The translations under genes and the position numbers were made by a program. Below the pieces are notes generated by a model. That model was not told the DNA's origin. It searched no databases and saw nothing but the letters and a program-made list of their open reading frames with translations. From contig DXFK01000038.1 in the NCBI GenBank assembly GCA_019114495.1, positions 367 through 64,366 on the forward strand: 64,000 bases of DNA, given 5' to 3'. This document shows, piece after piece, positions 1,966 to 48,630 of this stretch (its first letter is position 1; each line of letters opens with the position of its first letter). This DNA is from Candidatus Blautia stercoravium. Its GTDB lineage: Bacteria; Bacillota; Clostridia; Lachnospirales; Lachnospiraceae.

Positions 1966-2352
1966 TTATCTCTCATCTAACACAACAGTAATATGGCAGT
2001 TTCTCTTTTCGATTCTGTAAGCTCTACCCTGAGCTCTCGGTTTGATTCTCTTCATTGTAGGTGCTTTGTTAGCGTAGCACTCTGCAATGTAAAGATTTTC
2101 CGGATTCATACCGTTGTTGTTTTCAGCGTTTGCGATAGCTGATTCCAGCAATTTTTTGATTACGCTGGAAGCGTATCTTGGGTTGTATGTTAAGATACCC
2201 AGTGCTGTCTGAACATCTTTACCACGAATTACATCCAGTACATAGCAAGCTTTCTGTACGGACATTCTTGCGTAGGATAATTTTGCAGACGGTCTTGTAT
2301 CTTTATTAGCATTTCTTGCTCTTTTAATCTGACTTCTATGTCCTTTTGCCAT
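1966..2352 (-). CDS. rplV: 50S ribosomal protein L22 (N-terminally extended)
   Basis: [25 protein letters not shown] motifs. Confidence 0.97.
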
Positions 2353-5364: not shown

Positions 5365-5682
5365 TTATTTCTGTTTCATTTTGATATCAATATAAACACC
5401 AGCCGGCATTTCCAGTCTTGCCAGAGCGTCAACTGTTTTCTGTGTCGGTGCAATGATATCAATCAGTCTTTTATGAGTTCTCTGCTCGAACTGTTCTCTG
5501 GAATCTTTGTATTTGTGAACTGCACGCAGGATTGTTACTACTTCTTTCTTTGTAGGAAGCGGTACCGGTCCGCTAACAGTTGCTCCATTCTTCTTAACAG
5601 TTTCGATGATTTTGCCTGCTGACGCATCTACTAACTGATGGTCATAAGCTTTTAAAGTGATTCTCATTACTTGACTTGCCAT
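5365..5682 (-). CDS. rpsJ: 30S ribosomal protein S10
   Basis: RITLKAYDH...GPVPLPT...[15 protein letters not shown]. Confidence 0.98.
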
Positions 5683-5903
5683 AAAAAAAGTCTCCTCCTT
5701 TTCGCACTTTTAATTAGTACGACAAGCGGCGACTGTACACATTCCCGTGTGTGTCATTTCAATTCTGCACACACTCCCACCTTAGTGGTAAGTCTTTAGA
5801 TGTAATACAGTGACTTGTCGTCAGTTTCCTAACTTGACATTCGCTCCACGGAAAACCTGTCTTTGACAGCAACCTCGCGCTTCATAGCTATCATGTCACA
5901 GCA
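5683..5903 (-). ncRNA. S10 operon 5' leader (probable Clostridia S10 ribosomal leader)
   Basis: ~220-nt untranslated leader between the promoter and rpsJ containing GCGCGAGGTTGC...GGTTTTCCGTGGAGCGAATGTCAAG; family assignment recalled, not searched. Confidence 0.55.
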
Positions 5904-13631: not shown

Positions 13632-14864
13632 TTAAAAATATGTATAGTTTTTCGGCTTCTCATTCCAGCCAATGGCTCTTTGAATATCTTCCTCATATTT
13701 CCTGTCGCTGCATTCCATTCTCCCTGTCCACAGAAATGCTGAAAGGGGAATGGCGCCCATAACAAGAGAGGATAAATCCGCAATATTGGATTTCAGCACC
13801 ACGTCGGCTTCCCGGTCGCGGGTCAGAAGCACCTTGCCCTCCTGTATGTGGAGAAGGATACTTCCGTTGTTCTGTTCCATAAAATCATCTTCCACCTGCA
13901 GTTCCAGCGTAAATTCTCTTTCTACAGGCTGCTGACAGTGATTCTGCTGGGCAAAATAGCCCTTCAAATCCAGAATCCGGAACATGTACCCCATGTTCTT
14001 TCTTCCGATTTCCTGAATGGCCCCGTCAAAAGCCCGATTTTCGCCGCTGTCCGGGTTGGTAAACATCATATGGAAAAATTCTTCATAAGTATAAATCCGC
14101 ACCCGTTCTATCTGGTCTGTCTGGGAAGCAAAGAAAGTGAGAAACTGCTTCATGGTCTCCATGTCCTCACAGATCAGTTCCCGTACAACCAAGTCATGAT
14201 ACATATCTGTATAATGGTCTACCTCTGCAAATTCAAAGGTGAGATATCCTGTAATCCTGCCCTCTCTTCTGCACACCACCACATACGGCATATCAAAAAT
14301 CCGATGCTTATCCATAAAGGGGTGCAGTGTAGCCCCGTGAGTTTTCCCGGCATACGTTCTGTAAAATTCCAGAATTTCCTCTCTCTCCTCCGGCTTTGCA
14401 TAGGATAACCCGGATTTGTCACCATAAGAACGGATATATTGGGGACGGGGAGAATACATCATGGTTTCATTGCAGTAACCGAAGCCCATTTTATGATAAA
14501 AGGCAGGGTTAAAGGGGTGCAGCGCACCCACGGTTCTGCCCGTCTTTGCAAAAAATCCCAGCCCTACACGGACAAGGTTTTTGGCGATGTGCTCTTTCTT
14601 GTGGAGAAAGCTAGTGGACAGATAAGCCGTTCCGCCCATCTGCATCAGCTTTCCCCGCACATTCACTTCAAAATCCATCAGAAGAGAAGAACCAATCAGA
14701 TTTCCACTGTCATCAAAGCAGCCCAGATAATGCCCTTCTTCCGGACTTTTCAATTCTCCCGCCATATTGTGAAGCAGAGCCTCCGGCGTTTTAGAAGGAA
14801 ATCCCGTCACCACATTTGTCGCCAGCTGTGCTTCTTCTTCAGGCCGTACAAAGCGAATATCCAT
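13632..14864 (-). CDS. Eis-family GNAT acetyltransferase (tandem GNAT plus SCP2-like C-terminus)
   Basis: 410 aa; STSFLHKKEHIA as the GNAT motif-A equivalent, ALHPFNPAFYHKMGFG, C-terminal DVVLKSNIADLSSLVMG. Confidence 0.8.
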   Translation of the reverse strand: MDIRFVRPEEEAQLATNVVTGFPSKTPEALLHNMAGELKSPEEGHYLGCFDDSGNLIGSSLLMDFEVNVRGKLMQMGGTAYLSTSFLHKKEHIAKNLVRVGLGFFAKTGRTVGALHPFNPAFYHKMGFGYCNETMMYSPRPQYIRSYGDKSGLSYAKPEEREEILEFYRTYAGKTHGATLHPFMDKHRIFDMPYVVVCRREGRITGYLTFEFAEVDHYTDMYHDLVVRELICEDMETMKQFLTFFASQTDQIERVRIYTYEEFFHMMFTNPDSGENRAFDGAIQEIGRKNMGYMFRILDLKGYFAQQNHCQQPVEREFTLELQVEDDFMEQNNGSILLHIQEGKVLLTRDREADVVLKSNIADLSSLVMGAIPLSAFLWTGRMECSDRKYEEDIQRAIGWNEKPKNYTYF

Positions 14865-14879
14865 GCTTCTCTCTCCTTT

Positions 14880-15314
14880 TTACTGCCAGTCTGCCGGATA
14901 TACAAAATACGCATATCTGGTCTTGGAAGGAGTCTGGAAGTGAATATGGGAATTTTTCGGAATGTAAATGATATCTCCCGGGTTTCCTGTTACCACACGT
15001 CCGTCAATCTCGATTTCCAGCACCCCGTCAATGTCCAAGTCGTACTCATCATAAGTCAGCGTCCATTCAAAACTGGTGTGGTCCAGTTCCATAATGCCGC
15101 ATCCCATTCTGGGTGCTTCTTCCAGTGTGACCACATCTTTCAGAGCCACACCTTCCTGTTTAAAAGGCTCACATTTTACGGTATCTGTCTGAATTTTCAG
15201 GATTCCGCTGGGGTCTTTTTCCTTTACAAAATCTTCTTTGGGAGTTTCCGCTTTGGCGGATTCTGCCAGTACCTGCTTTACTACCTCACGAATCAGTTCT
15301 TCACTTACGTTCAT
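14880..15314 (-). CDS. eutQ: Ethanolamine utilisation cupin EutQ
   Basis: RMGCGIME...FEWTLTYDE...GDIIYIPKNSHIHF...YFVYPADW. Confidence 0.9.
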   Translation of the reverse strand: MNVSEELIREVVKQVLAESAKAETPKEDFVKEKDPSGILKIQTDTVKCEPFKQEGVALKDVVTLEEAPRMGCGIMELDHTSFEWTLTYDEYDLDIDGVLEIEIDGRVVTGNPGDIIYIPKNSHIHFQTPSKTRYAYFVYPADWQ

Positions 15315-29226: not shown

Positions 29227-31209
29227 TCATTTGGAAATACTGATAAAGTCTGCTGTTTCGTTGATAAAGTCAAAGTTTACCTCGGTTCCCTTTTCGTTGG
29301 AACGGATTTTCAGGCTGCCATGCAGCTTGTCCTGCACCATGGTACGGACAATGTTCAGCCCCAGGCTGCCAGCCCGTATTTTCCCGGTATCAAAGCCAAT
29401 GCCGTCATCCTTCACGGTAAGTCTGGAATAAACCTTTCCTTTTTCAATATGGACAGATACATTCCCCGATTCCCTGCCGCAAAACGCATATTTCATACAA
29501 TTCTGCAGCAATTCGTTGACAGACAGAGCCACGGAAGTAGCTATCTCAGAATCCACGGTCATATCTTCTCCCGTAATTTCCAGATTCAGCTTTAAATCCG
29601 ACTTCAAAAAAGGCTGTACCGCATTGCGTCTGACATTCTCCAGAACTTCCATAAGACTGACACAGACTTCTCCGCTCTGGGAAAGAAGCTGATGTGTGGC
29701 TGAAATGGATAAAATCCGGCTGATACTTTCGTTTAACACCCGCCGGGTTTCCTCATGCTCCTCTCTTCTGGCCTGAAGCCTTAAAAGCGAAGCTATGGTC
29801 TGAAGATTGTTCTTTACCCGGTGATGCAGTTCCTTCACTGCAACGGATTTCAGAACCAGATTCTTCTCCTGTTCACGATTCCAGGTAATGTCCCGGATAA
29901 TCACCGCAAATTGAATTTCCTTTTTCATCAGGGGAATCTGCCTTACCCGCAGATAATAGTTTCCACAGTGAACCTCCTTCAGCCGTTCCATACTGTCTTC
30001 GGTGCCGCTCCACTTTGTCAGACAGATATTTTTATACTTCTGCCCCAGAATGTCGCTGACATAACCCAGATTCTGAAAAAGTTCCCTTGCGTACAGGTTG
30101 CGAAAAGACACCCGCCCCTTGTAGTCCACCAACAGAAGCGCTTCATCTATGCTCTCTGTGAGCCATTCATTCTCGTTAATCATATGGTTCAGCGGTGTCT
30201 CAATGGCTTCATAACTCTTTCCTTCCTCCTGGTTCTCCTCATCCTCTGCAATGCGTTTTTCTCTGATGAGCACCCCGATCACCCGGGAATTGTACTTGAT
30301 GGGTTCCACAGACTGAACGGTGTAGTTATTTTCCTGTGTCCTGGCTTTCATGTACTTTGTGGCAACCCCCAGACGAAAAGTACGGGCCACAGCTGGTTCG
30401 TTTTCCTCTTTTGCAAGCATACCCACCACACTGCTGCGGTAAGCAGAGGGAACTTCCTCCGGCTTTGCTTCTGCCACCACAATGGCATCCTTATCCCTGC
30501 AGGGGCAGTCCACAAAAATGTCTGCTGCTTCCAGATTAGCCAGAGGCTGAAGGGTTCCAGCCATCATTTCAATTACCTGAATCTCCTCCTCTGAAAGGTC
30601 TGTGTATTCCCTGCAAAGCTGATGTATCAACTTCTGCATCCTATTCCCTCTGCGTATCAAAATAATCTCTGCAACCTTTTTCATGGAAATATTCTTTTCC
30701 CGGCTGATGTTGCGTATGTAGTCATAAGCCTGCTGTTCGGAAAGTCCGTTTTTACTCATAATGACTCCTTTTGCCTGCTCTACCAGGGTTCGGCTTTCCA
30801 GACGCCTGGTTACGCTCTGGCACTCCTTTTCCAGACGCCTCATGGTCTTATTTCTCTCTACCGCAATTTCAAGTCCCGGAAGAAAAGTCCTCTCGTCTAC
30901 GGGTTTTACAAAATAGGCGCTGACATTGGCCTCCTTTGCCTCCTGGATAAATTCCTTGTCACAGTAAGCTGTGAGAAGTACCACGGCTTCCGCCAGTTTT
31001 TCCTCCGCAATAATTTTAGAAGCGGTCAGACCGTCTAAAAGAGGCATTTTCACATCCATAATAACTAAATCCGGCTGTTCCTTTCTGCACATTTCCACCA
31101 CATCAAAGCCGTCTGCTGCCTCGCCTGCCACTGTATATCCTTCCTTTTCCAGAATTTCCTTTAAATCCATTCTGATAATCGGCTCGTCATCTGCAATGAT
31201 TACTCGCAT
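29227..31209 (-). CDS. eutVW: Fused EutV (receiver plus ANTAR) and EutW (sensor histidine kinase)
   Basis: ADDE and MDVKMP receiver; VEQAKG...AYDYIR ANTAR; Met191 at 30639 starts the EutW part with ELHHRVKNNLQ H-box and DDGIGF / GSLGL G-boxes; no stop between the two. Confidence 0.9.
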   Translation of the reverse strand: MRVIIADDEPIIRMDLKEILEKEGYTVAGEAADGFDVVEMCRKEQPDLVIMDVKMPLLDGLTASKIIAEEKLAEAVVLLTAYCDKEFIQEAKEANVSAYFVKPVDERTFLPGLEIAVERNKTMRRLEKECQSVTRRLESRTLVEQAKGVIMSKNGLSEQQAYDYIRNISREKNISMKKVAEIILIRRGNRMQKLIHQLCREYTDLSEEEIQVIEMMAGTLQPLANLEAADIFVDCPCRDKDAIVVAEAKPEEVPSAYRSSVVGMLAKEENEPAVARTFRLGVATKYMKARTQENNYTVQSVEPIKYNSRVIGVLIREKRIAEDEENQEEGKSYEAIETPLNHMINENEWLTESIDEALLLVDYKGRVSFRNLYARELFQNLGYVSDILGQKYKNICLTKWSGTEDSMERLKEVHCGNYYLRVRQIPLMKKEIQFAVIIRDITWNREQEKNLVLKSVAVKELHHRVKNNLQTIASLLRLQARREEHEETRRVLNESISRILSISATHQLLSQSGEVCVSLMEVLENVRRNAVQPFLKSDLKLNLEITGEDMTVDSEIATSVALSVNELLQNCMKYAFCGRESGNVSVHIEKGKVYSRLTVKDDGIGFDTGKIRAGSLGLNIVRTMVQDKLHGSLKIRSNEKGTEVNFDFINETADFISISK

Positions 31210-33237: not shown

Positions 33238-33293
33238 AAAAAAGTGCCTGGTTTTCCCTTCGCATCCAACCAATACGAAAAACCAAGACACTT
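33238..33293 (-). terminator. Leader terminator (attenuator) upstream of eutG
   Basis: AAGTGTCTTGGTTTT...AAAACCAGGCACTT followed by a T-run, between promoter and RBS. Confidence 0.75.
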
Positions 33294-33354
33294 CAACGCT
33301 CTTAGACTAATCCATTCGTACCTGCTGCGTCGCAGATACTCCTAAATTGCTGTT

Positions 33355-43431: not shown

Positions 43432-46080
43432 TTAAGGCTGAAGCTGTGCAAGTCTTGACTTCACCTGTTCCATCATATTGGTATAACGCTCTAATTTCTC
43501 GCGTTCTTCGGCCACCTTACTTTCAGGTGCCTTACTGATGAAACGTTCATTCTTCAGCATACCATTTACGCGCGCAAGCTCTTTTTCCAGTTTTTCCTCT
43601 TCTTTTTTCAGTCTTTCGATTTCCTTCTCAATATCCACCAATTCGGCAAAAGGCATATAAATCACAGCTTCTGAGGTCACTGCGGACACCGCGTCATCTG
43701 CAATTCCTGTCTTGTCTGCCTGTACCAGCACCTCGCTGGCATAACCAAGAGAGGCAAAGAAAACTTTTCCGTTTTCAAATACTTCTCTTACCCCTTCGTT
43801 TTCAGACACTACATAAACTTTTGCTTTCTTGCTTGGCGGTACGTTCATGCCTGTACGGACATTACGGATACTTCTCACCGCCTCTTTCATCATTTCCACA
43901 GCTTCTTCATCTGCTTTGAAGTTCCATGCCTCTGTAAATTCCGGCCAGGAAGAAATCATAATGGACTCTTCTTCCGGACACAGAGTACGGAAAATTTCCT
44001 CTGTGATAAAAGGCATGTATGGGTGCAGCAGTTTTAATGCATTGGCCAGAACCGTCTTCAAAGTCCACAGTGCTGCGGCTTTTGTGGTGTCTTCCTCGCT
44101 GTAAAGACGGGGTTTCACCATTTCGATATACCAGTCGCAGAATTCCTCCCAGATGAAGTCATAAACCTTCTGTACGGCAATGCCCAGTTCGTATTTGTCC
44201 AGATTCTCTGTCACATCTTTGGCCAGTGTATTCACTTTGGAAAGAATCCACTTGTCTGCGCTGGTCAGTGCAGACAAATCAATGTCAGCCGGAACCTCTG
44301 CTTTTTCCAGGTTCATCATAATAAATCTGGAGGCATTCCATACCTTATTGGCAAAGTTTCTGCTGGCTTCCACTCTCTCCCAGTAGAAACGCATGTCATT
44401 TCCAGGTGCATTTCCTGTCATCAAGGTCAGACGCAGAGCATCGGCGCCGTATTTGTCAATGACTTCCAGTGGGTCGATGCCGTTTCCAAGGGATTTACTC
44501 ATCTTACGTCCCTGGGAATCTCTTACCAGACCGTGAATCAGCACATGATGGAATGGTGTCTTTCCTGTCTGTTCCAGACCGGAGAATACCATACGGATAA
44601 CCCAGAAGAAAATAATATCATATCCGGTTACCAGCACATCGGTAGGATAGAAGTAATCCAGTTCCTCTGTGTTTTCCGGCCAGCCAAGGGTAGAGAATGG
44701 CCACAGTGCAGAGGAAAACCAGGTATCCAGGGTATCCTCGTCCTGATGCAGGTGGGTACAGCCGCATTTCGGACATTTTTCCGGCATCTCTCCTGCCACA
44801 ACAGTCTCTCCACATTCATCGCAGTAGTAAGCCGGAATTCTGTGTCCCCACCAGAGCTGACGGGAAATACACCAGTCTCTGATATTTTCCAGCCAGTGCA
44901 TGTAAATCTTGTCAAAACGTTCCGGCACAAATTTCAGATTGCCGTCCTGTAAGGTCTGAATAGCAGCTTCGCCCATTTCCTTCATACGCACGAACCACTG
45001 CGGTTTAATCATAGGTTCTACCGTAGTCTTACAGCGGTCATGAGTTCCTACACTATGGGAATGAGGAACCACTTTTACCAGAAGTCCCAGTTCCTTTAAG
45101 TCCTCTACCATGGTCTTTCTGGCTTCGTAGCGATCCATACCTGCGTATTTGCCGCCCAGTTCGTTGATGGTAGCATCATCATTCATGATATTGATTTCCG
45201 GAAGGTTGTGTCTCTTTCCTACCTCAAAGTCATTGGGGTCATGAGCCGGAGTAATCTTCACACAGCCGGTTCCGAATTCTTTGTCTACATATTCATCTGC
45301 TACAACCGGAATTTCTCTGTCTGTCAGCGGCAGCTTCAGCATTTTGCCTACCAGGTCTTTGTAACGATCGTCTTCCGGATTTACCGCCACTGCTGTATCT
45401 CCCAGAAGAGTTTCCGGACGTGTGGTTGCGATTTCTACGAATTTTCCTTCTTCCCCCACTACCGGATAATTGATGTGCCAGAAAAATCCGTCCTGATCCT
45501 CGTGCTCTACCTCTGCATCAGAAATAGAGGTCTGACATACCGGACACCAGTTGATGATTCTGGAGCCTTTGTAAATATAGCCTTTTTCGTACAGCTTAAT
45601 GAAAACTTCCTGTACAGCTTTGGAACAGCCCTCGTCCATGGTAAAACGCTCTCTGTCCCAATCTGCGGAAGCACCCAGTTTCTTCAGCTGATTGATAATC
45701 TTTCCGCCATACTCCTCTTTCCATTCCCAGGCATGTTTTAAGAACTCTTCTCTTCCGATTTCATTCTTATCAATGCCCTGCTCTTTCAGCTTTTCAATAA
45801 CCTTTACCTCAGTGGCAATGGCCGCATGGTCTGTTCCCGGCTGCCAGAGAGCTTCGTATCCCTGCATTCTCTTGAAACGAATGAGAATATCCTGCATGGT
45901 TTCATCCAGGGCATGTCCCATGTGAAGCTGTCCCGTAACGTTTGGCGGGGGCATAACAATGGTAAACGGTTTTTTGTCTCGGTTTACTTGGGCATGGAAG
46001 TATTTGTTGTCCAGCCATTTCTGGTAAATACGGTCTTCCAGCCCTTTCGGGTCATAAGTTTTTGCAAGTTCTTTGCTCAT
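43432..46080 (-). CDS. valS: Valine--tRNA ligase
   Basis: [32 protein letters not shown]-terminal coiled coil. Confidence 0.99.
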
Positions 46081-46124: not shown

Positions 46125-46411
46125 TGCAAACAAAAAGCCCCTCCATAACCATCTTTCAAAAAATAGTTACAAAGGGCGACTGTAATCGCGGTACCACCTT
46201 TATTTATCACTCTGAAGTCCCTTAACGCAGACGACGCGTGGAAACCTACAAAACCCTTTTCTCTACTTTTTTTCTATATCAAGCCGATTCTTCAGTTCCC
46301 CAGTTCAAAAGCTACCTTCCGTCTCTTCCCTCCCAGACAATCTTTCAGCCGGTGAATTGTCCTCTCTGCCGGTTTCCAAGACGTACTCCTCTTTCTCATC
46401 ACCTTTTTCTG
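46125..46411 (-). ncRNA. T-box riboswitch (Val)
   Basis: AGTA and GCTGA boxes; specifier GAAG-GTA-GC (Val codon, 46313-46315); T-box AAGGTGGTACCGCG (46187-46200); terminator with U-tract. Confidence 0.93.
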
Positions 46412-46417
46412 AAAAAT

Positions 46418-46446
46418 ATCATAAGCACAAAGCCCGGCTTTGTCAA
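46418..46446 (-). promoter_or_regulatory. sigmaA promoter of valS
   Basis: TTGACA-17 bp-TATGAT. Confidence 0.85.
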
Positions 46447-46574: not shown

Positions 46575-47633
46575 ATGCATATAACAAAAAAAGTTCTGAA
46601 AGGAGTGATGCTTCTGCTCCTCTTCGCAGTCATTGTGCTGATTGCCGGAATTATCTGGCTCACCGTCCGGGAATACCGGCCCAAAGCAGTGGAAACACTC
46701 ACACCCCCATCCGGTGTGCGAACCATTTCTACTGAGGATACCTTCCGGGTTATGACTTTCAACACCGGATATGCAGGTCTTGACAAAACCCAGGATTTCT
46801 TTATGGACGGCGGCTCGGGGGTACAGCCGGACAGCCAGCAGCAGGTAGAAACCAATTTAAAGGGTATTGGGAAAATTCTTTCCAGTAATTCCGCAGATGC
46901 TTATTTTCTCCAGGAAGTGGATACCGATTCCAAACGCTCCTATCATCTGAACGAAGAACAATATTATGAAAGTATTCTGAACATGGATGGAGTATTTGCC
47001 TGCAACTTCAAATGCGACTTTGTTCCCTATCCCCTGCCGCCCATTGGGAAGGTAACCAGTGGGATTTTGACGCTTACGGATTTACATACCTCTTCTGCTT
47101 CCAGAATTTCTCTGCCGGAATCTTTTTCCTGGCCCGTAAAAACCTGCAATCTGAAACGCTGCATGCTGGAAACCCGTATTCCCTTAAAGGGCACGGACGC
47201 AGAGCTGGTTCTGATTAATTTCCATCTGGAAGCCTATGACAGCGGAGAGGGCAAGGCTGCTCAGAGCAAGGTGCTGGCAGAAAAACTTTCCCAGGAATAC
47301 GCAGCTGGCAATTATGTCATCGCAGGGGGGGATTTTAACCAGACCTTTGAAGGCATGGACACCTACCCCATTCACGACACCAATGGCTGGGTTCCCGGCA
47401 CGATCGGACAGGAAGACCTGCCAGAGCATTTCTCCTTTGCCGCAGATGACAGCTATCCAACCTGCCGTCTGCTAAATGCCCCGTATACAGGTTCTTACGA
47501 GACCTCCCAGGTATATGTTCTGGACGGCTTTATTGTATCAGACAATCTGAAAGTTTCTGATGTTTCTGTTATCAATACAGATTTTGCCTACACAGACCAT
47601 CAGCCGGTTATGCTGGAAGTGGGGTTCCAATAG
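46575..47633 (+). CDS. Endonuclease/exonuclease/phosphatase (EEP) family hydrolase with N-terminal membrane anchor
   Basis: TM, MTFNTGY, LQEVD, NFHL, GGDFN, LDGF, TDHQPV motifs. Confidence 0.9.
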   Translation: MHITKKVLKGVMLLLLFAVIVLIAGIIWLTVREYRPKAVETLTPPSGVRTISTEDTFRVMTFNTGYAGLDKTQDFFMDGGSGVQPDSQQQVETNLKGIGKILSSNSADAYFLQEVDTDSKRSYHLNEEQYYESILNMDGVFACNFKCDFVPYPLPPIGKVTSGILTLTDLHTSSASRISLPESFSWPVKTCNLKRCMLETRIPLKGTDAELVLINFHLEAYDSGEGKAAQSKVLAEKLSQEYAAGNYVIAGGDFNQTFEGMDTYPIHDTNGWVPGTIGQEDLPEHFSFAADDSYPTCRLLNAPYTGSYETSQVYVLDGFIVSDNLKVSDVSVINTDFAYTDHQPVMLEVGFQ

Positions 47634-48096
47634 GAACTCCGCTTCCAGCTTTCCTTTAGGGTATGTTTTAGATATGTTGTACAGAAAAATATCTGTCAGA
47701 CAACGCTCTTTCCCATTTTCCTTTTTATATCTTTTTTCCATGAATACTATAACTTGAAATTTCCCGCTAAACTGCGGATAAGACGCTATGTAGAAATCCT
47801 TTTGATGTGTTAACTGTTTTTCTGTACAGAAACATTGCCTGCAAATCTATTTCAAAACTCCGTGACGGCTCTGTTCAGCTATTTTGTCTTTCTTTTTCGG
47901 GACCTTTTGATGGACACTCCCTGATTCCGGTCACGAAGCTTTCCTGTTCTCTGCGGAGGATGCGCGGTTTTGTTTGTTGCGGGAAAACAAAACCTGTAAA
48001 CAGCCAAACAGGAAACATAGAATCAGGGAATATACCACCTGCCATTTAATCAATGCATAATTCTATAAGTTCAGGTTCACCTTTCGGCAATTCCAT

Positions 48097-48128
48097 AAAA
48101 AAATCCACCTTCCTCGTGAAAGCGGACT
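48097..48128 (-). terminator. Expression-platform terminator of the cobalamin riboswitch
   Basis: AGTCCGCTTT-cacgag-GAAGGTGGAT followed by TTTTTT. Confidence 0.75.
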
Positions 48129-48191
48129 CGTCAACTGTCTGTAAACAGTGTGAGGGATTTCAAACTTTGCACGGAAGTTATCACCTTACTA

Positions 48192-48366
48192 CTACTAAGC
48201 AGGTTTCCTGACTCATGGCTCATTGCTTTGCCGCTCCTTCTCGTACTGCTTCGTACAATGGACTTCTGCGGCATCACTCCCCAAATACAGTGACCGGATC
48301 GCTCAGGACTCACACCTGATTCCCTTTTCACCAGTGTTGTGCGGTCAACACGGTGCACTTAATAGG
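48192..48366 (-). ncRNA. Cobalamin (AdoCbl) riboswitch
   Basis: GGTG-AAAAGGGAA-TCAGGTGTGAGTCCTGA-GCGATCCGGTCACTGT...GCCATGAGTCAGGAAACCTGC; P1 CTATTAAG/CTTAGTAG. Confidence 0.9.
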
Positions 48367-48388
48367 TTTATGGAATTATACATTAACT

Positions 48389-48417
48389 ATAATACCATTG
48401 CCTTCAAGCCACGTCAA
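48389..48417 (-). promoter_or_regulatory. sigmaA promoter driving the cobalamin riboswitch RNA
   Basis: TTGACG-17 bp-TATTAT with extended -10 TG. Confidence 0.75.
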
Positions 48418-48426
48418 GCACTTTTC

Positions 48427-48630
48427 CTAATTTTCTTCTGTTTTTTTCTGTTCTCTTCGGCGTTTTGTCATAAGCCCGCCGATACGTCCCGTTTCCTTTG
48501 CAGACAGGCTTTTCCAGCCATTTGCAGCCACCCGGTCCAAAAGTCCCAGTTCTCCGGCAATTTCATATTTTATTTTTTCCTCTTCCGGAATATTATTTAA
48601 ATCAATTTTTTCTTCTTTTTTCTTTGCCAT
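48427..48630 (-). CDS. Small acid-soluble spore protein (alpha/beta family)
   Basis: KYEIAGELGL...LSAKETGRIGGLM. Confidence 0.85.
   Translation of the reverse strand: MAKKKEEKIDLNNIPEEEKIKYEIAGELGLLDRVAANGWKSLSAKETGRIGGLMTKRRREQKKTEEN

Follow-up and report, generated by a model that had tools for sequence, protein, structure and literature searches.

What does a cobalamin riboswitch control when no gene follows it? The question is raised by a locus of Candidatus Blautia stercoravium, within a 64,000-nt stretch of contig DXFK01000038.1 (hereafter the window; the source is a draft assembly, 91% complete, in 219 contigs), where a riboswitch of the adenosylcobalamin (AdoCbl) type with its own promoter and terminator is followed by a long non-coding tail. 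The first-pass annotation of this DNA had proposed that the unit encodes a B12-controlled RNA acting in trans on the eut system, after the model of EutX of Enterococcus faecalis and Rli55 of Listeria monocytogenes, small RNAs (sRNAs) that are gated by an AdoCbl riboswitch and sequester the regulator EutV. Our analysis indicates that the riboswitch very probably gates a structured RNA that has no dedicated role in eut, and we favour, with considerably less assurance, the view that this RNA is a stand-alone, B12-gated regulator acting in trans. As far as comparative sequence analysis can tell, the orphan riboswitch is real and more than a deletion scar, and the structured non-coding RNA that it appears to gate is found genus-wide.

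Every feature of the unit, from riboswitch through terminator to tail, lies on the minus strand, and its coordinates are given here in the direction of transcription. The promoter (48417..48389) is of the sigma-70 type, with the −35 hexamer TTGACG (48417..48412), a 17-nt spacer and the TG-extended −10 hexamer TATTAT (48394..48389); TTGAC and ATGGTATTAT are kept across the aligned species. The predicted transcript begins with a 15-nt leader that hardly varies within the genus, UGUAUAAUUCCAUAA (48382..48368), and continues into the aptamer (48377..48181), which covers the whole Rfam model RF00174 (1-189 of 189) with 101.3 bits and an E-value of 3.5e-24, the gathering score being 31.5. RNAalifold analysis of 19 full-length sequences revealed compensatory changes in the aptamer helices. 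Immediately 3' of the aptamer stands the hairpin AACUUCCGUGCAAAGUU (48178..48162; columns 211-216 with 224-229 of the consensus fold), which, to judge by cobalamin riboswitches in general, is likely P13, and its loop would then kiss L5. An intrinsic terminator follows (48129..48094), with a stem at 48129..48101 and a T-run to 48094, and its stem pairing survives G-C to A-U changes in relatives (columns 268-275 with 291-298). The position of this terminator directly after the aptamer would fit an OFF-switch expression platform responding to the ligand. The promoter-aptamer-terminator unit recognised by the first-pass annotation is thus real. Scanning 47400..48500 at E-values up to 10, we found no second Rfam family; besides the cobalamin aptamer there was only a chance match to Yfr10 (E 4.5).

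The conserved sequence does not end at the terminator. DNA searches and alignment showed similarity from the promoter to about 47905, i.e. some 190 nt beyond the terminator, and the best-conserved segment of this part is block 1, UAUGGAAUUGCCGAAAGGUGAACCUGAACUUAUAGAAUUAUGCAUUGAUUAAAUGGCAG (48097..48039). Among 40 relatives searched at the DNA level, 21 of the 24 further Blautia genomes contained the region, as against none of the 16 from other families of the order. When the 201 nt after the terminator were used as the query, matches of 73-99% identity were obtained in 32 of 35 Blautia genomes, including 23 of the 24 of high quality. A signature pattern of the tail recovered 29 loci in one-genome-per-species GTDB data, all labelled either as Blautia (hansenii, producta, hominis, celeris and several Candidatus species) or as unclassified Firmicutes, Bacillota, Clostridia or Lachnospiraceae. 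The riboswitch-tail region is 98% identical to that of B. hansenii MSK.15.26, and the product of a neighbouring gene, a DUF4097 protein, is 90% identical in B. hansenii; since this protein reaches only about 24-33% identity in most species, the tail is much more constrained than its neighbour. The comparisons show the tail of about 190 nt (48097..47909) to be under purifying selection, with compensatory changes. The remaining 3' extension (47908..47634) is shared only in part with G016, the closest relative, and the other genomes of the genus do not share it, the DNA past this point does not align between species, and the flanks and downstream genes vary. The proposal of an orphan unit with a non-coding read-through product is supported, the conserved, structured part of that product being the first ~190 nt after the terminator. 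Similarly, the statement that no open reading frame (ORF) of 60 codons or more lies within the region is correct for the minus strand, where the longest ORF in 48100..47634 has 56 aa (48045..47875) and lacks a Shine-Dalgarno (SD) sequence, and incorrect for the plus strand, which holds an 80-aa ORF with a GTG start (47807..48049), a mechanical reading that has no counterpart in relatives.

The conserved tail folds into a rod. In each species it gives the same long structure, with −37 to −52 kcal/mol per ~140 nt, and in the window the rod domain (48039..47909, about 130 nt) consists of an outer helix GGUGG/CCAUC, the pairing UUCCCUGAUUC/GAAUCAGGGAG, an inner helix UCCUGU/GCAGGA and an apical hairpin. 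Its minimum free energy is −52.2 kcal/mol (z −4.0; none of 200 shuffled sequences was equally stable), the complementary plus strand reaches a z of −1.8 only, which fits the many G-U pairs. RNAalifold analysis of 19 species recovered the outer helix and the apical hairpin with compensatory changes. Subsequently, covariation was tested after realignment with a covariance model, using 500 shuffles and a control in which the pairing partners were slid by 1-3 columns. Rod cells were paired in 82.9% of cases against 71.7% in shuffled alignments, and two-sided changes were seen in 22 rod pairs against 14.2; none of the 500 shuffles reached either value, and pairing fell to 39-52% in the slid control, although all these figures lean towards structure because the alignment had been fitted to the model. 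Helices 1, 4 and 5 agree in the independent RNAalifold run and in the single-sequence folds, and in helix 5, the apical stem (~47993..47967), two-sided changes were present in 8 of 9 pairs.

Three motifs stand out within the rod. The apical loop UCCCGCAAC (47984..47976) is an invariant stretch of 9 nt that is predicted to be unpaired. On the 3' side, the motif CAUCCUCCGCAG (47962..47951) places CAUCCUCC, predicted to be unpaired and resembling an anti-SD sequence, in an internal loop, its GCAG joining helix 4. The conserved motif UUCGUGAC (47937..47930) occupies a further internal loop, in which the invariant UCGUGAC is predicted to be unpaired. One Blautia species (loci L032 and L074) carries a terminator after the rod that repeats the apical stem-loop as GGCCAUCG-UCCCGCAAC-CGAUGGCC, and this suggests that the loop itself is the recognised element. 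The 16S rRNA gene of G007 contains the loop sequence as an identical 9-mer (position 1224 of L089), presumably as part of the conserved 16S region around 1090-1100, and in some species GUGUCGUGA in the tail likewise matches this 16S region. Mimicry of rRNA was rejected, the k-mers shared with the rRNA operon being not above those of random genomic windows (P 0.02-0.15).

A further element would connect the 5' leader with the tail. The leader UGUAUAAUUCCAUAA is complementary to UUAUAGAAUUAUGCA in block 1 (block 1b, 48068..48054), and RNAalifold analysis of the 19 full-length sequences predicted a helix of 14 bp, P0, that encloses the aptamer and the terminator. Seven changes were observed in P0, all of them one-sided and all preserving the pair (U-A to U-G or the reverse). 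By its position, P0 could form only in transcripts that read through the terminator. We preferred the helix to a plus-strand promoter in block 1 (TGCATAAT), which has no usable −35 hexamer and was not flagged by the promoter scan.

Since the read-through product of this orphan cobalamin unit is conserved and non-coding, an RNA that is controlled by B12 and has its own function is a good reading, and we propose the following course of events. With ample AdoCbl, the aptamer would fold and transcription would stop near 48101, leaving a short RNA of about 280 nt that contains only the riboswitch. Under B12 scarcity, RNA polymerase would read through and the long form would accumulate; its 5' end would pair with block 1b, closing the riboswitch in P0, which probably shields the 5' end and stabilises the long form. 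The rod would display the invariant unpaired UCCCGCAAC, CAUCCUCC and UCGUGAC as a contact surface for a partner in trans, either the SD region of an mRNA or a protein, and the RNA would signal low B12 to other genes. We suggest only tentatively the more specific version of this reading, namely a genus-wide low-B12 signal RNA whose C/U-rich loops are offered to mRNAs or to a non-ANTAR protein and which reprogrammes B12-dependent metabolism or B12 sparing in trans. RyhB plays a comparable role in trans for iron.

The genes around the unit raise the alternative that the RNA acts in cis. Upstream on the same strand lies a gene for a small acid-soluble spore protein (SASP; 48630..48427; Pfam SASP), with a PspC-domain gene and the DUF4097 gene farther up; the SASP stop codon stands 10 nt before the riboswitch promoter, and the gene lacks its own terminator. 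Its transcripts would enter the riboswitch and could use the B12-dependent terminator there. Downstream, a convergent plus-strand gene (46575..47633) encodes a 352-aa protein with a weak Exo_endo_phos match (EEP) and ends in a 17-bp hairpin (47649..47612), a terminator with a T-rich tail on the plus strand only. It is followed on the minus strand by a T-box leader (46408..46169, 99 bits) and valS (46080..43432). The order SASP gene, RNA, an insert that varies and T-box(Val)-valS is kept across Blautia. Elsewhere in the window, an S10-Clostridia ribosomal protein leader (RF03136, 93 bits, 5815..5893, minus strand) precedes a ribosomal protein operon, which is an ordinary arrangement.

Sherlock et al. 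(2022) described two cases in Blautia in which an AdoCbl riboswitch and a T-box(Val) stand in tandem ahead of valS, with a long spacer in between and no evident rationale for the arrangement (PMC9481103), and the riboswitch studied here is almost certainly the Blautia AdoCbl riboswitch of that report. The genus, the downstream T-box(Val)-valS and the long spacer without an ORF are the same, and the tandem order, riboswitch and then same-strand T-box(Val)-valS, is present in the window. The RNA might on this basis be a cis-acting leader, either the upstream half of a two-input AdoCbl/T-box(Val) gate on valS or a B12-controlled antisense to the convergent gene. T-box and valS are indeed the next same-strand gene in most loci, and in the window read-through into the convergent gene is possible in that no minus-strand terminator follows the rod. 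A single 5' untranslated region (UTR) was nevertheless not found in the window, as the opposite-strand gene and its terminator hairpin intervene between tail and T-box, and the T-box has its own promoter (TTGACA-17-TATGAT at ~46446..46418, minus strand), which argues against the published single-UTR tandem. Among the 29 loci of the pattern search, 18 reach a same-strand valS downstream of the tail. Ten of these hold a convergent EEP gene in between, with or without a MATE or ABC gene; eight lack the EEP gene, and seven of the eight are of the B. producta type, with valS ~440-670 nt after block 1. Even in the B. producta type a shorter, different rod is followed by a strong terminator and by a promoter of the same form, TTGACA-17-TATGAT, before the T-box. 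Moreover, a terminator-like hairpin with a T-run was found after block 1 in 24 of the 32 distinct loci, and in 19 of these it stands no more than 200 nt away. Most type 1 loci carry a terminator after the rod, and the genes beyond are unrelated across species (convergent EEP or MFS, ABC, MATE, GntR with ABC, or T-box-valS). In the window, as in the majority of Blautia species, the two RNAs are thus separated by other genes, among them a convergent one, and the spacer, which in the tandem would be a neutral linker, is conserved and structured as an RNA. Riboswitch RNA and T-box probably form two distinct units of transcription, and we regard control in cis as an unlikely function of the tail.

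Copies of the module at other loci bear on this alternative and on a related one. Those designated type 2 occur in five Blautia species, and Blautia sp. Marseille-P3201T has one as its second copy. They have no terminator after the rod; riboswitch and tail are succeeded by a conserved element of ~110 nt and by genes for an HNH_repeat protein, a Peripla_BP_2 protein and a FecCD permease, which is a B12-type ABC transporter. The ~110-nt element (GAUACGAUGAGGRAUG...AAAAGUCCGGUGRAARUCCGGCAC...AUAAGUCAGCAG..UCGU) lies upstream of HNH_repeat and B12-type transporter genes, e.g. at L064 (~1990..2110) and in the window's own genome (G000, contig C211, ~5600..5460, minus strand), where it precedes a canonical cobalamin riboswitch instead of following the tail as in the type 2 loci. 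It looks like a truncated cobalamin aptamer by its sequence; as a second cobalamin aptamer it was rejected, no Rfam match being obtained at E-values up to 1. When 400 genomes of the order were searched with a covariance model, the E-values of which are rough, the module was found in one more genus, the sister genus g41, with riboswitch, block 1, a short rod bearing CCUCCGC in a hairpin loop and a T-run, and then a PF04071 cysteine-rich gene. The earlier consideration that relatives might carry a B12-related gene at this place was consequently correct only for copies elsewhere, which precede such genes; none was found at the SASP-valS site. Judging by these arrangements, the module probably originated in leaders of B12-related genes; at the SASP-valS site it appears to have persisted as an orphan while the genus radiated.

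The type 2 and g41 modules, in which the sole intervening terminator is the T-run ending the g41 rod, are an argument for a leader acting in cis, and they also suit the reading that the tail is a second sensor domain, i.e. an aptamer or a protein-binding leader element derived from B12-transport leaders, which at the present locus would have little or no function or would only tune the stability of the riboswitch RNA itself. The layout of the rod is aptamer-like (a closing helix, conserved nucleotides in internal loops and an invariant apical loop), the g41 rod ends like a second regulated terminator before its PF04071 gene, the type 2 copies stand in transporter leaders beside an unannotated conserved element, and one genome of the genus has lost the RNA. 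Against a relic speaks the combination of purifying selection and covariation in more than 25 species at the orphan locus; against a sensor, that neither a ligand nor the logic of an expression platform can be derived from the tail and that it matches no Rfam family. We therefore consider a second sensor or its relic improbable as an account of the orphan copy.

The sponge proposed at first, a full-length RNA that would sequester EutV at low B12 and keep eut off until AdoCbl is present, has in its favour the shared architecture of promoter, AdoCbl aptamer, terminator and non-coding tail. A complete eut cluster lies on the minus strand of the window (~33296 to 14880), including eutV and eutW some 15 kb from the RNA, and an Rfam scan detected no riboswitch inside the locus, as the first-pass annotation had stated. 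The description of eutVW needs one correction, in that EutV (receiver and ANTAR) and EutW (GAF_PdtaS, HisKA_2 and HATPase) form a single 660-aa frame in this assembly (29227..31209, minus strand). They are joined near 30640 because a run of A residues has lost 1 nt (GGAAAATAGG to GGGAATAGG) in comparison with B. hansenii, in which eutV ends with TAG and eutW starts 2 nt later as a separate gene; the fusion may be real or may be a homopolymer error of the draft assembly.

Targets of ANTAR proteins are hexaloop hairpins with an obligatory G at position 4, usually an A at position 1 and at least 3 closing pairs, normally as a tandem pair, although a single G4 hexaloop is now defined as the minimal site (PMC8934654). 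The eutG leader (33339..33282, minus strand) contains an ANTAR-type dual hairpin that overlaps the leader terminator and is kept in five Blautia relatives. Its P1 is GUAUCUGC-GACGCA-GCAGGUAC (33339..33318), and P2 is a bulged hairpin with the hexaloop GUUGAA, whose 3' arm overlaps the 5' arm of the terminator. The first position of both hexaloops is G, where A1 would be canonical, and G4 is kept. P1 served as a partial positive control, since the scan recovered it while P2 was read by hand. No conserved hexaloop hairpin was present in the tails of 19 species, whether searched strictly or in relaxed form (R..G.. loops, single or dual, with 3-bp stems); a strict A..G.. dual-hairpin scan of the window and a scan for the 13-nt motif AGCAANGRRGCUY found nothing conserved in the tail either. 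The apical loop could be read as the minimal site U[CCCGCA]A with G at position 4, yet it measures 9 nt (8 nt in type 2 copies) and as a hexaloop lacks three closing pairs. The two hexaloop candidates of the first-pass annotation (47863-47877 and 47701-47712) form no hairpin of at least 3 bp even under relaxed rules and lie in the non-conserved 47908..47634.

The distribution of the RNA is equally at odds with EutV as its partner. All nine of the 35 genus genomes with EutV-type ANTAR regulators possess the RNA, which speaks for the sponge, yet the RNA is found in 32, so that EutV is missing from 23 RNA-bearing genomes and the co-occurrence of riboswitch and eutVW expected in relatives does not hold. 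Six of the genomes with the RNA (G006, G012, which is one contig, G017, G018, G022 and G023) are at least 99% complete and have neither EutB nor EutV. The RNA lies neither inside nor next to the eut locus, and the predicted duplexes of its tail motifs with the eutG leader were no better than with random genomic segments. The missing ANTAR motif and the distribution of EutV relative to the RNA therefore leave a eut-specific role unsupported, and we consider it very unlikely that the RNA is an EutV sponge. Judged by motif, the partner would be neither EutV nor any other ANTAR protein, nor does it appear to be eut-specific. A second receiver-ANTAR regulator is encoded in the window's own genome (contig C148, ~14590..15232, plus strand) and in 34 of 35 Blautia genomes; it is presumably a nitrogen-related antiterminator, since it adjoins glnA (glutamine synthetase) and urease genes. 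It was rejected as a partner, as it would need the same hexaloop motif, which is absent from the tail.

A small protein, translated from the 56-aa ORF or from a 16-aa ORF starting at 48095, can practically be dismissed: in its favour are the position of the ATG at 48045 within a conserved block and alignment gaps whose lengths are in some cases divisible by three; against it, there is no SD sequence, the ORF from this ATG ranges from 5 to 125 aa in relatives, the conserved motifs are read in differing frames, the ATG is ACG in the B. producta clade and the helix substitutions are compensatory, the inconsistency of frame and start codon being the ground of rejection.

Several observations count against a stand-alone RNA acting in trans. 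Both ends of the RNA and its response to B12 are deduced from sequence. The minus strand after the rod has no clean intrinsic terminator in the B. hansenii clade, to which the window, G016 and G007 belong, and here the long form may lack a sharp 3' end or may extend as an antisense RNA into the convergent gene. P0 shows no two-sided covariation in the 19 sequences, because both of its strands are nearly invariant, and is hence plausible rather than proven. The homologous copies act as leaders of B12-related genes, so that the tail may have originated as a leader domain acting in cis. In G002 (L094; G002:C79 5453..6016) the RNA has been cleanly lost, and the SASP gene is followed by T-box-valS within 28 nt. 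Searches for partners in trans point the same way: sites of the CUGCGGAGG type are not enriched at ribosome-binding sites of the genome and yielded no target. Genomic sites complementary to CAUCCUCCGCAG or UCCCGCAAC occurred about as often as by chance for 10-mers and about as expected at ribosome-binding sites for 8-mers. Some of these hits were lipobox codons (C-G-G) of lipoproteins, and a metF site and a gltD-like site were seen among them without enrichment. In addition, RNAduplex predictions of the tail motifs with the valS T-box leader, the SASP mRNA, the eutG leader and the region upstream of the PspC gene were all at background. With these points taken into account, the stand-alone RNA acting in trans is still the interpretation that we somewhat favour.

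To our knowledge, very few riboswitch-gated RNAs acting in trans exist, chiefly EutX and Rli55. The present RNA shares with them its own promoter, the AdoCbl aptamer, the terminator and a tail without an ORF that would be made at low B12. It differs in that the tail is a covarying rod of ~130 nt with a 9-nt loop and C/U-rich internal loops rather than ANTAR hexaloops, and in its occurrence away from the eut locus and in genomes devoid of EutV. AspocR of Listeria, a B12-riboswitch-controlled antisense RNA to pocR, is similar in that a B12 riboswitch gates a long non-coding transcript, and read-through in the window would likewise be antisense to the convergent gene; however, this convergent layout exists in some species only, and the conserved part is the structured tail and not the antisense overlap. 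The Listeria SAM riboswitches SreA and SreB act in trans as terminated fragments upstream of real genes. Like these and other riboswitch-derived sRNAs, the Blautia RNA is proposed to have a regulatory role beyond its own downstream gene, whereas its candidate effector is located 3' of the terminator and no gene follows.

The locus thus combines the gating logic of EutX and Rli55 with a different, well-conserved effector domain, in a corrinoid-dependent genus that is abundant in the human gut. It also recasts the published puzzle of the Blautia AdoCbl riboswitch and T-box(Val), as the spacer is a conserved structured RNA and the two elements are probably separate units. If the tail were a mere relic of a leader, the result would be ordinary. 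If the RNA is indeed a low-B12 signal, it would represent a second mechanistic class of riboswitch-controlled RNA acting in trans after EutX and Rli55, and the discovery of a partner for the rod would show how gut anaerobes relay their B12 status to genes that have no riboswitch.

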